DNA of 64,000 bases from a phage. A program made the position numbers and the translations under genes. Numbering within the stretch: the stretch's first letter is position 1; each line of letters starts with the position of its first letter. The notes beneath the pieces are model-generated. The model ran no database searches. It saw nothing but the letters and a program-made list of their open reading frames with translations, and had not been told where the DNA came from. Of this stretch, positions 14,618-27,297 are shown one piece after another. The DNA lies in the sequence record PZ379176.1, one strand, 5' to 3'.

Positions 14618-16408
14618 ATGTCAAAGATCATTTTGGGAGACACAGGTTGTAAGGAATGTATCTCTCATGGTCGTGATAAAACCCACAACCACATGATTCT
14701 CTTCCGTAACGAAGAGACTGGTGAGGAGTGGGGAAGTTGTAACCGTTGTGGGAATTACGAAGTGTTCGAAAAGGGCACTACACCTACTCCAAACGAGAAG
14801 AAAGAGTTATCCCCTGAAGAGTTGAGAGAAGTCTTAGATGATTGCTTAGAGCTTCCTCAGGGTGAACTTACTCGCCGTTTAATCCCTAAAGCTGTATCAG
14901 AGCGGTTTGAGTGTCGTATTGGCCTCAGTCAAACTGATGGTCAGACACCAGACAGTTACTTCTTTCCTCGTGAACGTGATGGAAACATTGTCGGATATGA
15001 GGTTAAGCTGCTAGATAGTAAGAAGTTCTATTACGTCGGCAGTGTTAAAGAAGCAGATTTGTTCGGTATGGCACAAGCCCAACGTGGAGATGTGTACAAC
15101 AAGAAGCTCTTCATTTTTGAAGACCCGCTATCCTGTATGTCAGGTTTCCATGTCCTTACAGCTTTTACAAATGCAACAAACATTAAACCAGCATGTGTTT
15201 CTTTACCGTTCGGTGCAGGTTCAATCTCTTCTGTGTTGTCTCGTAATCGAGACTTCGTAAACGGTTTTGAGGAGGTTGTGCTCTGCATGGACAACGATGA
15301 TGCAGGTGAGATAGCTTTAACAAAAGGTCGTTCTTTATTCCCTCATGTTAAGTTTGCTCGTATTCCTAAAGGAACTTTCCCATACAACGGTGTGGAGAAA
15401 GAGATTAAGGATGCGAATGACATGCTTCTGTCTGGTCGTGGTCAAGAGTTATTCAACATTCTCAAATATTCAGCAAAGCGGGAATCTCCTGCTGGTGCTG
15501 TAACAATCTTTGATTGCCTTGATGATGCTCTGAAGAAAGCGGAGTGGGGTATTCCCTATCCGTGGAAAACTCTTAATGAGATGACCTTCGGTATTCGATG
15601 GGGAGAGGTGGTAGCAATTGGTGGTGGAGTAGGGAGTGGTAAAACACTCATTGCTCACGAGCTGGTTGCTCATCTGTGCTTAGAGCATGGTTTTAATGGA
15701 GGTGGCTTCTTCTTGGAAGAGAAGGTAGGCATGTCTGTTAAGAACATCGCTGGTAAGTCAGCATCAATTCCTTTCCACCGACCTGATGTTGAATATGATG
15801 AGGAGGATTTGCGTAATGAAGCACTTCGTTATGCAGACAAATTCTTCTTGTATGACAACTTCGGACAGAACGAATGGGAAGACATTAAACAGTGTATACG
15901 TTTCTGGGTAGTTGAAAACCAGTGTAAGTTTATCATCCTTGATAACATTACCGCTCTGGTGTCTCATTTAACTCCTTCAGAGATTAACACTGAAATCAGT
16001 AAGATTGCTTCCGAGCTTGCTGGTATGTGCAAAGAATTAGACTTTACCGCTTTCGTTCTATCTCACCTTAATGCTCCGGCAGGTGGTGCTCCTCATGAAG
16101 AAGGTGGACAGGTACGTGAAGTACAGTTCACTGGCTCTCGTTCTCTTATGCGTTGGTGTCAGTGTATCATTGGCTTTGAGCGTGACAAGCAAGCTGACGG
16201 CTTAGCTAAGAACCTCTCAGTCATTCGATTACTGAAAGAACGTAACTACGGTCAGACAGGTGTCTGTTATACTAAGTATATCAGTGAAACCGGTAGACTT
16301 GTAGAAAGGGAAGACTTTGAAGTTGATGAAGATAATCCATTCGTTTTAACTAACGGAGAGGATGCAGCTTCTCTCGTCAACCAAGCAGATGGAGCTTCAC
16401 CGTGGTAA
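14618..16408 (+). CDS. T7 gp4-like bifunctional DNA primase-helicase
   Basis: N-terminal Cys4 zinc ribbon, TOPRIM-like MDNDDAGE, Walker [10 protein letters not shown], Walker B-like FIILDN. Confidence 0.85.
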
Positions 16409-16959
16409 AGAAAAAGAAGAAAGTGTTTGCATTCGATATCGAGAGTAATGCACTGTACGATGACATAACTAAAGTATGGTGTATTTATATCTTTGATGTT
16501 GAAACTGGTGAAAGGTGGGGCTATCGGCCTCACCAAATTGAAGATGGGATTCGTAAACTTACAGAAGCAGATGTACTAGTGGGTCATAATATTATTGACT
16601 TCGACTTACCTGCTCTGAAAAAGATGTATCCTTCTTTGATTAAATATAATTTTAACGTCTTTGACACTTTATGTCTTAGTCGATATCTTAAACCTGACCG
16701 TATTGGTGACAGTCCTGAGTATCCGAAAGGCGACCCTAGACGTGGCCCAAGAGGTCATGGTTTGAAGCAATGGGGTGAGTTCTTAGAGGAACTTAAAGGT
16801 GACTACGGTGAGCAAGAGGAAGCATGGGATGCTTTCACTGAAGATATGTTTACTTATTGTGAACAGGACGTTAACTTAACTGTTAAGGTTTATCTTTTCT
16901 TGTGTGAACTCACGGGATTTGACCCTTACGACCCACCTTCATTATATTGGAAAATGTAA
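16402..16959 (+). CDS. DnaQ-like 3'-5' exonuclease (proofreading domain of family A DNA polymerase) as a separate ORF
   Basis: Exo I FDIE, Exo [10 protein letters not shown], Exo III YCEQDV; GTG start overlapping primase-helicase stop. Confidence 0.7.
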
Positions 16960-16960
16960 A

Positions 16961-25453: not shown

Positions 25454-26179
25454 GTGAGCAACCCGGACGCTCTTCCATTTTTGACAGAGATGACTGTCGC
25501 TGATATAATCTCTAAGCAAGCAAAGCACGGAGTGAGTTTCAACCGAAGAAATGCTCGGTGGTATGTTCACCTCCTTAAAGAGATTATTGTTAATATTGAC
25601 AGAGAGTTGATTCCTCTCTTACCTAAGATGAGATTAGATGGCTCTACTTACATGAAGCCATTTAAGAAGTCTGGAGCTTTACAGAAGTGGCCTCAAGCCT
25701 ATTGTGATAGGGTTGGGCTGAAAAGAGAAGATATTGGTGGAGCTTTCACCTGCGTCGAATACGTAGACTTTGACCCATCGAAAGATGCACGAGTTAAAGA
25801 AGCTCTTATGGATGAGGGTTTTCTTCCTCCAGAGTTTAACGTATCTAAGAAGCCTTGGAATACTTTCGAAATTAAGAAAGATATGCGAAAGTATGGAACA
25901 TACCAAGCATGGTATACTGCTTGGATGCGAGGTAATGCTAAGCAAAAGCAGACAGCCGAGATGGTTGACGCTGATATTAAGAAGTTCTTAGAAAAGCATT
26001 TCAGGTTTAAAACTAAGAACTATATGAAGGCTTACGTATTTGGTTTGGGATTAAACCCGAATCGCCGTAATCCTGTAACGTTTGATGAGATTAAGAAAGC
26101 ACTAGCCACATCAAACAAGTGGCCTACAGCTCCTACAAACCTCGAGGAGACTCTTGAAGAAGGGTTAGGGGTGAGCTAG
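25454..26179 (+). CDS. family A DNA polymerase, N-terminal part of polymerase domain
   Basis: Position directly upstream of the palm/fingers ORF; frame stays open into the next ORF's overlap zone 26158-26179. Confidence 0.5.
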   Translation: MSNPDALPFLTEMTVADIISKQAKHGVSFNRRNARWYVHLLKEIIVNIDRELIPLLPKMRLDGSTYMKPFKKSGALQKWPQAYCDRVGLKREDIGGAFTCVEYVDFDPSKDARVKEALMDEGFLPPEFNVSKKPWNTFEIKKDMRKYGTYQAWYTAWMRGNAKQKQTAEMVDADIKKFLEKHFRFKTKNYMKAYVFGLGLNPNRRNPVTFDEIKKALATSNKWPTAPTNLEETLEEGLGVS

Positions 26180-26193
26180 GGAGTGTCGGAAGT

Positions 26194-27297
26194 TTGCTTA
26201 AGAGACGCGTTGTAGCGGCTCACAGGCTAGGTCTTATCAGTGGACTCATAGCAAAGGAACGCGAAGATGGTAAACTTTCGGCAGAAGCTAACAGCTGCGC
26301 TACGCCGACTTTTCGATTCAAACATCGTATCGTGGTTAATATTCCCTCCCGTGGTCTGTTTGGTCACGAGTGTCGCAGTTTGTTTGAGTCTGACTATAAC
26401 TCAGACAGTGATCACTCTCGTCCTTTCGTTATTACTAACGTTGTTCCTGATGGTTGTTATATACGAAAAGGTACTAACGTAATTTACGAGAAAGGTAAGC
26501 CGGGGAAGAAAGATAAACCTATAGGTGCTTACAAATATTACATACCCGCTGGTAAAGAAGTATTCTTAGGGTATGATGGTTCTGGACTTGAACTTCGTAT
26601 GCTCGCTCACTACCTCATTAAAGAGTGTAGGGATATGCTTGCTGAGGCAATTGAAGAGAACAACCCAGCTAAGAAAGCTCTGGCAGAACGTGGTTTAGCT
26701 TCTGCTATTATGTATCGTGATATTCTCCTTGAAGGTGATATCCACTCCCACAACCAGAAACTTGCTGGTCTTCCTACTCGTGACAACGCTAAGACGTTTA
26801 TCTACGCATTCAACTATGGTGCTGGTGATGCTAAGCTTGGTTCAATTGTAGGTGGTGGGGCTGACGAAGGTTCAGTGATGCGAGCACGTTTCTTAGCAGA
26901 GAACCCATGTATTGCAATCCTCATTGATCGTATGACAGAGAAAGCTGCTCAAGGATACTTGATTGGAGTTGATGGTCGTAAGATTACAATGAGACGGGAT
27001 GCCACTGGTAAGGTTATGGTTCATAAAGCCCTTAACACACTCCTGCAATGTGCTGGTGCTGTTGTTATGAAATATGCTATGATGTTCCTTAACAAGTGGA
27101 TTGAGAAAGATAAGGTTCGTTGTGCTAAGGTAATTGATATGCACGATGAAGGTCAATTCTCAGTAAACCGTAATGATGTACAGAAACTCAAAGAGCACAC
27201 CGAGCTTTGTGTTAAGAAAGCTGGCGAGTATCTGAATATGGAATGTCCTCTGGCATCTGATTGTCAGATTGGACTTAACTGGATGCATACACACTAA
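26194..27297 (+). CDS. family A DNA polymerase, catalytic part
   Basis: Motif A DGSGLELRMLAHY, motif B RDNAKTFIYAFNYGAG, motif C VIDMHDEGQF. Confidence 0.8.
   Translation: MLKRRVVAAHRLGLISGLIAKEREDGKLSAEANSCATPTFRFKHRIVVNIPSRGLFGHECRSLFESDYNSDSDHSRPFVITNVVPDGCYIRKGTNVIYEKGKPGKKDKPIGAYKYYIPAGKEVFLGYDGSGLELRMLAHYLIKECRDMLAEAIEENNPAKKALAERGLASAIMYRDILLEGDIHSHNQKLAGLPTRDNAKTFIYAFNYGAGDAKLGSIVGGGADEGSVMRARFLAENPCIAILIDRMTEKAAQGYLIGVDGRKITMRRDATGKVMVHKALNTLLQCAGAVVMKYAMMFLNKWIEKDKVRCAKVIDMHDEGQFSVNRNDVQKLKEHTELCVKKAGEYLNMECPLASDCQIGLNWMHTH

Follow-up and report, generated by a model that had tools for sequence, protein, structure and literature searches.

Separate genes for a 3'-5' exonuclease and a polymerase have been described in phages as encoding a multi-subunit DNA polymerase (PMC3517423, PMC9965538), and the 5'-3' exonuclease has been reported as a separate subunit (PMC9965538). 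The closest described case is phage phiEco32, in which gp74 (phi32_74) is annotated as 'DNA polymerase exonuclease subunit' and gp53 (phi32_53) as a polymerase that 'lacks 5'-3' and 3'-5' exonuclease domains'. In the LUZ24-like Pseudomonas phages (Bruynoghevirus: LUZ24, PaP4, tf, UFV-P2), the gene for the separate 3'-5' exonuclease overlaps the stop codon of the primase/helicase gene (also PMC3517423, PMC3890496), and the LUZ24 proteins are named 'DNA polymerase part I' (gp25) and parts II and III (gp34 and gp36).

We analyzed a 64,000-nucleotide stretch of phage DNA (PZ379176.1), referred to here as the window. Its source is a phiEco32-like podophage of the genus Kuravirus, and the region shares 98-99% nucleotide identity with many sequenced phages, among them Ec3-ASingh, Bas91, SU10 and phiEco32. 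A first-pass annotation had proposed that a family A DNA polymerase is encoded here in pieces, with the proofreading exonuclease about 8.5 kb away from a polymerase domain that is itself split across two frames. The features that bear on this proposal are as follows.

14618-16408, + strand: DNA primase/helicase, T7 gp4-like (Pfam DnaB_C and Toprim_2; 99.8% identity to Bas91_0069)
16402-16959, + strand: 3'-5' proofreading exonuclease, predicted, separate gene, 185 aa (equivalent to phiEco32 phi32_74)
16432-16449, + strand: Exo I motif, FDIESN, in the exonuclease ORF
16582-16605, + strand: Exo II motif, in the exonuclease ORF
16855-16872, + strand: Exo III motif, YCEQDV, in the exonuclease ORF
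20640-20915, + strand: phage thioredoxin, between the exonuclease and polymerase genes (Pfam Thioredoxin, E=2e-13)
25454-27297, + strand: DNA polymerase, predicted, one gene without exonuclease domains, 614 aa in phiEco32 (equivalent to phi32_53)
26168-26171, + strand: GGGG run, GGGGG in relatives, the site of a single-base deletion by pairwise alignment
26572-26598, + strand: polymerase motif A, YDGSGLELR, aligned with T7 gp5 DASGLELR
26779-26820, + strand: polymerase motif B, RDNAKTFIYAFNYG, aligned with T7 RDNAKTFIYGFLYG
27139-27156, + strand: polymerase motif C, MHDEGQ, aligned with T7 VHDEIQ
33338-34156, + strand: 5'-3' exonuclease, FEN-like, in its own gene (phrog_107 'exonuclease', E=2e-64)

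The assignment of motifs Exo I, II and III to the 185-aa ORF was borne out. We searched for the acidic residues of the DEDDy motifs (Exo I DxE, Exo II Nx2-3[F/Y]D, Exo III Yx3D) and found the catalytic residues intact; D12, E14, D68, Y152 and D156 are invariant in an alignment of the window with 7-11, TacPo2, LUZ24, PaP4 and T7 gp5. The ORF also scores 34.7 bits (E=2e-8) against Pfam DNA_pol_A_exo1, above the cutoff of 23.6, matches residues 3-178 of T7 gp5 (E=1e-11) and is recognized by phrog_403 and phrog_38876, both 'DNA polymerase exonuclease subunit'. The product of 16402-16959 is thus predicted to be a DEDDy (DnaQ-like) 3'-5' exonuclease. The start of its gene overlaps the stop codon of the primase/helicase gene, and the same overlap is found in phiEco32, LUZ24 and PaP4.

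The polymerase gene of the window is broken by a 1-nt deletion into 25454-26179 and 26158/26194-27297. Motifs A, B and C had been placed in 26194-27297, and we located all three there, present in order when sought as D..SG.E, R...K...F..Y. and HDE, respectively; the tyrosine of motif B aligns with the tyrosine of T7 gp5 ...TFIYGFLYG. The C-terminal ORF of the window and the full-length phiEco32 protein alike score 83.1 bits against Pfam DNA_pol_A (cutoff 34.3). The preceding ORF, 25454-26179, proved to be polymerase sequence as well; it corresponds to residues ∼214-396 of T7 gp5, with the thumb region collinear between the two. In phrog_17 'DNA polymerase', the exonuclease, this ORF and the C-terminal piece occupy positions 667-826, 836-951 and 939-1233, respectively, and are collinear. 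In a profile comparison (hhalign), residues 9-606 of the polymerase aligned with residues 214-704 of T7 gp5 at a probability of 100% (E=7.6e-48), so that exonuclease and polymerase together map onto residues 3-178 and 214-704 of gp5. By these matches, the polymerase of the window is a family A, T7 gp5-like enzyme with the corresponding predicted activity. An AlphaFold2 model of the 241-aa N-terminal ORF, built on a shallow alignment of seven sequences, reached a mean pLDDT of 60 and a pTM of 0.46, too low to be informative, and a protein database search with this ORF returned six fragmentary proteins (147-324 aa) and no full-length homologue.

The two reading frames overlap over 26158-26179, as the first-pass annotation had stated: the ORF 25454-26179 terminates at TAG 26177-26179, and the downstream frame opens at 26158, immediately behind TGA 26155-26157. 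A split of the polymerase across two frames did not hold up, however, as the single-base deletion is unique to the window, and the relatives have G5 and one frame. We read GGGGG at the junction directly in eleven relatives; carriers of G5 include all five IMG/VR or phage loci with the junction motif (L001, L002, L004, L005 and L006), Bas91 and six of six metagenome contigs. The G4 pattern was found in 0 IMG/VR contigs, and none of 71 phage records matched the junction of the window exactly; each of the best 12 of these 71 records spans 72 nt at the junction against the 71-nt query. G4 versus G5 is the sole difference at the junction between the window and phiEco32 or Bas91.

Insertion of one G gives a single 614-aa ORF with one terminal stop that is essentially identical to phiEco32 gp53, and its expected junction peptide would read ...EEGLGGELGSVGSLLK. 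Correction of one indel therefore yields a continuous polymerase ORF, the outcome that the first-pass annotation had named as refuting its proposal. The gene is a single 1845-nt CDS in both phiEco32 (phi32_53) and Bas91 (Bas91_0047), and in a tblastn comparison with the Bas91 polymerase, residues 1-239 fell in frame 2 (100% identity) and residues 240-614 in frame 1 (99.7%). Among relatives with 39-87% identity, the polymerase is one continuous ORF or is broken solely by endonuclease-bearing insertions elsewhere. Just past the break, eight diverse homologues share invariant G243, L248, R252, H257 and R258, all read in the same frame as the N-terminal part. By mass spectrometry, the SU10 polymerase was detected at 69.2 kDa, the size of the full-length protein (69.1 kDa predicted; PMC4281155). 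Loss of one G from a G5 run through a sequencing or assembly error is most likely, with the true gene probably one 614-aa ORF.

Three further large genes that are intact in Bas91 are broken in the window by 1-nt deletions.

~11595: GlmS-like gene, A6 to A5 (676 aa in Bas91)
~12714: RimK/S6-glutaminyl-transferase-like gene, T lost between C runs (400 aa in Bas91)
~49251: tail fibre gene, C6 to C5 (1005 aa in Bas91)

Besides the polymerase site, clean homopolymer contractions number only two, those at ~11595 and ~49251. The breakage of three additional large genes indicates assembly errors, and points to an assembly of the window that is probably error-prone.

The shorter G run could instead be a genuine mutation in the isolate or population, which would leave either a truncated polymerase in a defective or minority genome or two polypeptides that reassemble, one of 241 aa with the thumb and one of 367 aa with palm and fingers, the latter initiated anew at TTG 26194. 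We consider this improbable. A possible ribosome-binding site, GGGAG, precedes TTG 26194 by 10 nt, and the break maps to about residue 396 of T7 gp5, close to where thumb and palm meet; however, GGGAG and TTG also occur in relatives with intact ORFs, where they are coding sequence, and the G4 allele is absent from all relatives examined. The polymerase is essential to a lytic phage. Three more large genes, one of them for a tail fibre, have similar 1-nt deletions, and joint tolerance of all of these would be unlikely in a viable phage. It is more doubtful still that GGGG is real and that the phage replicates with it, either through three polypeptides (exonuclease, 241-aa thumb and 367-aa palm/fingers) or through low-level slippage on the G run; were this so, a T7-type polymerase domain would tolerate a further split.

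Programmed recoding within 26158-26179, by a -1 ribosomal frameshift or by slippage of transcription along the G run, might also join the two frames into a full-length polymerase. The 22-nt overlap of the frames, the direction of the shift needed (-1) and the homopolymer at the shift site would fit, yet the overlap (GAA GAA GGG TTA GGG GTG AGC TAG) holds no slippery heptamer of the form X XXY YYZ. Known transcriptional slippage tracts are far longer than the four G present here. No relative has the two-frame arrangement, all having G5 and a single frame, and with the slippery site absent and the arrangement not conserved we rejected programmed frameshifting, to which we give very little credence. 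A mobile element, whether a group I intron, an intein or a homing endonuclease, interrupts the polymerase gene in some relatives, with insertions at about residue 454 in KBNP1711, LUZ24 and BUCT695, at about residue 564 in the loci L002 and L004 and at about residue 290 in L036. For the window, such an interruption has a next to negligible probability and is refuted by the alignment: the gene, at 1844 nt, is 1 nt shorter than the 1845-nt gene of phiEco32, there is no insertion, both halves align end to end with 99.7-100% protein identity, and the insertions of the relatives lie at three other sites.

Thus, a replicase that natively consists of two genes, for exonuclease and polymerase, combined with a sequencing or assembly error as the cause of the frame break in the polymerase, is highly probable as the joint explanation. 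To judge by the relatives compared, the two-frame polymerase is not a trait of the phage lineage. The first-pass annotation had offered a multi-subunit polymerase and a frameshift or sequencing error as alternatives, and each applies to a different part of the system: conservation favors the former for the separation of exonuclease and polymerase, and the split within the polymerase is better ascribed to a sequencing error. The frame break is accordingly a matter of data quality, and a biological reading of split-gene appearances in the window needs read support first.

The separation of the exonuclease from the polymerase by ∼8.5 kb is real, and its layout is conserved in all relatives examined. 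In every one of them, from 99% down to 39% identity, the two genes are separate, and the arrangement of an exonuclease gene adjoining that for the primase/helicase, with an exonuclease-less polymerase downstream, is common to the window, phiEco32, 7-11, LUZ24, PaP4 and TacPo2. This conservation supports the multi-subunit reading. The count of eleven unrelated genes between the two was too low, with 20 CDS annotated in phiEco32 and Bas91 and ∼22-23 ORFs on the + strand of the window, and many of them are functionally related. The interval holds mostly genes for nucleotide metabolism and replication, among them those for a dCTP deaminase, ThyX, thioredoxin, a Dps-like DNA-binding protein and PhoH.

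The thioredoxin might, purely as a hypothesis by analogy, act as a T7-style processivity partner of the polymerase. A processivity role has been proposed for the thioredoxin of Privateer and other C3 phages (PMC7881722), and thioredoxin was found by mass spectrometry in SU10 (PMC4281155). The FEN-like 5'-3' exonuclease at 33338-34156 is a third Pol I-type activity with its own gene. Its homologues are phi32_33 in phiEco32 and Bas91_0026, and its match to Pfam 5_3_exonuc_N is weak (26.4 bits, below the cutoff).

We propose that the replicase is a T7 gp5-type family A polymerase built from two native genes. One encodes the 185-aa 3'-5' exonuclease, directly 3' of and overlapping the primase/helicase gene, and the other the 614-aa polymerase, beginning where the polymerase domain of T7 gp5 begins; the 5'-3' exonuclease is supplied by a third, separate gene. 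The exonuclease and polymerase polypeptides are presumed to join non-covalently into a gp5-like proofreading enzyme, and we infer that they physically associate. In the literature that could be searched, no biochemical evidence for such a complex was found, and the term 'DNA polymerase exonuclease subunit' occurred in genome announcements only. RefSeq, PHROG and comparative-genomics papers already record a separate proofreading exonuclease for phiEco32-like and LUZ24-like phages; the separate gene is genuine, conserved and previously published, hence nothing new, and the discovery value of the locus is small.

Compared with named systems, the locus is closest to that of phiEco32, whose gp74 and gp53 are orthologues of its exonuclease and polymerase with ∼99% protein identity and whose gene order is the same: primase/helicase, exonuclease, about 20 genes, polymerase and 5'-3' exonuclease. 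The window differs in that its polymerase is one G short in the G5 run, giving two ORFs, and in slight gene differences between exonuclease and polymerase. The LUZ24-like phages share with the window the exonuclease gene that overlaps the primase/helicase stop codon, and their exonuclease-less polymerase is 39% identical to that of the window and collinear over its full length, with the 5'-3' exonuclease again separate. In these phages, however, exonuclease and polymerase lie about 2 kb apart as against 8.5 kb in the window, no thioredoxin or nucleotide-metabolism block stands between them, and the polymerase gene of LUZ24 carries an insertion that contains an endonuclease and is called an intron in PMC3517423.

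T7 gp5 unites both domains in one 704-aa polypeptide, and the split in the window falls at its interdomain linker; exonuclease and polymerase together are thus predicted to represent a gp5 divided at this linker, with insertions in the polymerase at about residues 143-222 and 312-365 relative to gp5. While the T7 polymerase pairs with the thioredoxin of its host, that of the window is phage-encoded and a candidate partner. In the core of E. coli DNA polymerase III, the alpha polymerase and the epsilon (DnaQ) exonuclease are separate polypeptides of one enzyme. The likeness of this core to the window, a polymerase with a separate DEDD proofreading exonuclease, is a functional analogy, as alpha belongs to family C and the polymerase of the window to family A, and the polymerase subunits are not homologous.

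The polymerase region (25400-27400) shares 98-99% nucleotide identity with over 50 sequenced coliphages of the phiEco32-like type (Kuravirus, Gordonclarkvirinae), including Ec3-ASingh, LorandFenyves_Bas91 (Bas91), SU10 and phiEco32, and a whole-window blastn comparison showed that Bas91 is collinear with the window across nearly all 64 kb.

The 185-aa ORF at 16402-16959, to which the first-pass annotation had assigned the Exo I/II/III motifs, indeed encodes the 3'-5' exonuclease. It passed the Pfam DNA_pol_A_exo1 model (34.7 bits, cutoff 23.6) and matched T7 gp5 residues 3-178 (E=1e-11), and in an alignment with 7-11, TacPo2, LUZ24, PaP4 and T7 the acidic residues D12, E14, D68 and D156 of these motifs are invariant, as is Y152. 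The features of this gene and of two further genes are as follows.

16402-16408: exonuclease start (GTG 16402), overlapping the primase/helicase stop (16406-16408) by 7 nt
20640-20915, plus strand: phage-encoded thioredoxin, between exonuclease and polymerase
33338-34156, plus strand: FEN-like 5'-3' exonuclease (phrog_107, E=2e-64), a third separate gene

The 7-nt overlap suggests translational coupling to the primase/helicase. Since it is kept in phiEco32, LUZ24 and PaP4, the exonuclease gene is linked to the helicase and not to the polymerase. In 7-11 and TacPo2, one small gene separates the exonuclease gene from the primase/helicase gene. Exonuclease and polymerase lie approximately 2.0-2.3 kb apart in LUZ24 and PaP4, against 6.7 kb (7-11), 8.0 kb (phiEco32) and 8.5 kb (the window, as originally estimated). 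The gap is filled by nucleotide-metabolism and replication genes. It had been described as eleven unrelated genes, but the window contains 22-23 ORFs here (∼20 annotated CDS in phiEco32 and Bas91), and not all are unrelated, as they include dCTP deaminase, ThyX, a Dps-like DNA-binding protein, PhoH and thioredoxin. The nucleotidyltransferase gene at 16961-18274 is the most divergent of the replication block (only 93.6% identical to Bas91) and lacks 48 nt (38 + 10) relative to Bas91 at 18150-18160.

This split layout is already known. RefSeq labels the phiEco32 exonuclease phi32_74 "DNA polymerase exonuclease subunit", a name also given to families in PHROGs, and describes the polymerase phi32_53 as being without both exonuclease domains. 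Polymerase and 3'-exonuclease are separate genes in all LUZ24-group phages, as also reported for phiEco32 (PMC3517423), and the polymerase, 5'-3' exonuclease and 3'-5' exonuclease subunits are separate in all Kuravirus-like phages and relatives (PMC9965538). The separate exonuclease is real, conserved and previously described. With the 5'-3' exonuclease on a third gene, this phage group carries each of the three classical Pol I activities on a polypeptide of its own.

The family A motifs A, B and C were found at 26572-26598, 26779-26820 and 27139-27156, within the downstream ORF (26194-27297) as first proposed, and the Pfam DNA_pol_A score was 83.1 bits. The upstream ORF (25454-26179) gave no Pfam match but is nonetheless polymerase sequence: it matches positions 836-951 of phrog_17 ("DNA polymerase"), exactly between the exonuclease (667-826) and the downstream ORF (939-1233). 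A profile built from eight full-length polymerase homologues aligned over residues 9-606 with T7 gp5 214-704 (probability 100%, E=7.6e-48), and this collinearity identifies the first ORF as the half of the polymerase domain on the thumb side. The exonuclease accounts for gp5 3-178, and in the polymerase the gp5 match starts at gp5 214, just 8 residues into the protein, so the pair corresponds to gp5 cut at the interdomain linker. Two insertions distinguish the polymerase from gp5, at 25880-26120 (residues ∼143-222) and 26390-26550 (residues ∼312-365); the first, in the thumb region, is confidently predicted to form a helical bundle (pLDDT 82-95 at ∼130-180) in an otherwise poor model.

The frame change within the polymerase is caused by a single base. 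The upstream ORF stops at TAG 26177-26179 and the following frame is free of stops from 26158 onward, confirming the 22-nt overlap noted initially. Both phi32_53 and Bas91_0047 are single 1845-nt CDSs (614 aa), while the corresponding window stretch measures 1844 nt, and the one difference that matters in pairwise alignment is that the window reads TAGGGGTGA where relatives read TAGGGGGTGA, which leaves the run at 26168-26171 one G short (four, against five in relatives). In tblastn, Bas91 polymerase residues 1-239 matched one frame (100% identity) and residues 240-614 the next (99.7%). Insertion of one G restored a 614-aa ORF that runs without interruption to its terminal stop and contains ...EETLEEGLGGELGSVGSLLKRR..., an outcome that the first-pass annotation had named as evidence against a genuine split. 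In eight diverse homologues, residues G243, L248, R252, H257 and R258, just past the break, do not vary and share the frame of the N-terminal part. Five G were present in every relative with a readable motif (five IMG/VR or phage loci, Bas91 and 6/6 metagenome contigs), while four were found in no IMG/VR contig searched. None of 71 matching phage records was identical to the 71-nt junction, and, among the matches listed, the best 12 each spanned 72 nt at 98.6% identity, i.e., one gap. A tblastn survey yielded one continuous match (residues ∼8-614, 39-50% identity) in 7-11, Privateer, Aeromonas 4_4572, TacPo2, PaP4 and many LUZ24-like phages; in the non-continuous relatives, an annotated endonuclease gene interrupts the polymerase. 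SU10 proteomics found the polymerase at its full-length size (69.2 kDa observed, 69.1 kDa predicted; PMC4281155).

All indels relative to Bas91 were listed and Bas91 proteins mapped onto the window. Besides the polymerase, three large conserved genes are broken by 1-nt deletions, and an intergenic run is shortened.

9807-11833, plus strand: GlmS-like amidotransferase, lesion at ∼11595 (A5; A6 in Bas91 and phiEco32)
12280-13469: RimK/S6-glutaminyl-transferase-like gene, lesion at ∼12714 (T lost between C runs)
49385-46372, minus strand: 1005-aa tail fibre, lesion at ∼49251 (C6 to C5)
27358-27361: intergenic, G5 shortened to G4 directly upstream of ATG 27362

Such a pattern is what homopolymer-prone sequencing or an unpolished assembly produces, and this assembly seems to contain systematic single-base undercalls. 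Simultaneous frameshifts in polymerase and tail fibre are unlikely for a viable lytic phage, and on both grounds we consider the frameshift in the polymerase to be artefactual, a genuine mutation in the phage population sequenced being the unlikely alternative. Recoding, by which slippage or frameshifting would join the two frames, is rejected: the overlap (GAA GAA GGG TTA GGG GTG AGC TAG) contains no slippery X XXY YYZ heptamer, known transcriptional slippage tracts are far longer than four G, and the two-frame arrangement is not conserved among relatives. The first-pass annotation, which had offered a multi-subunit enzyme, frameshifting or sequencing error, was partly confirmed in its observations and partly supported in its interpretation: the multi-subunit reading is supported for exonuclease and polymerase and sequencing error for the split within the polymerase, but frameshifting is not.

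No sequence is inserted in the window polymerase, which rules out an intron, intein or homing endonuclease there. Relatives carry insertions at three conserved sites, all unoccupied in the window, which look like introns or homing-endonuclease elements.

Residue ∼290: L036 10867-11083, ∼215 nt, no ORF
Residue ∼454, just past motif B: KBNP1711 (L009) 11362-12147 and LUZ24 (L030) 7125-7768, endonuclease ORF; also in BUCT695
Residue ∼564, motif C HDE: L002 and L004 11692-12300, 131-aa ORF

Beyond the observed domain content, catalytic motifs, gp5 collinearity and conserved two-gene layout, we infer that the exonuclease and polymerase polypeptides would associate non-covalently into a proofreading polymerase. 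Our literature search, which did not cover the original phiEco32 paper, found no biochemical study of such a complex. A T7-like processivity factor role has been proposed for thioredoxin (PMC7881722) and, as the polymerase is gp5-like, the thioredoxin at 20640-20915 may serve it in this way. The complex is proposed by analogy with T7 gp5, in which the arrangement is intramolecular, and with the Pol III alpha/epsilon pair.
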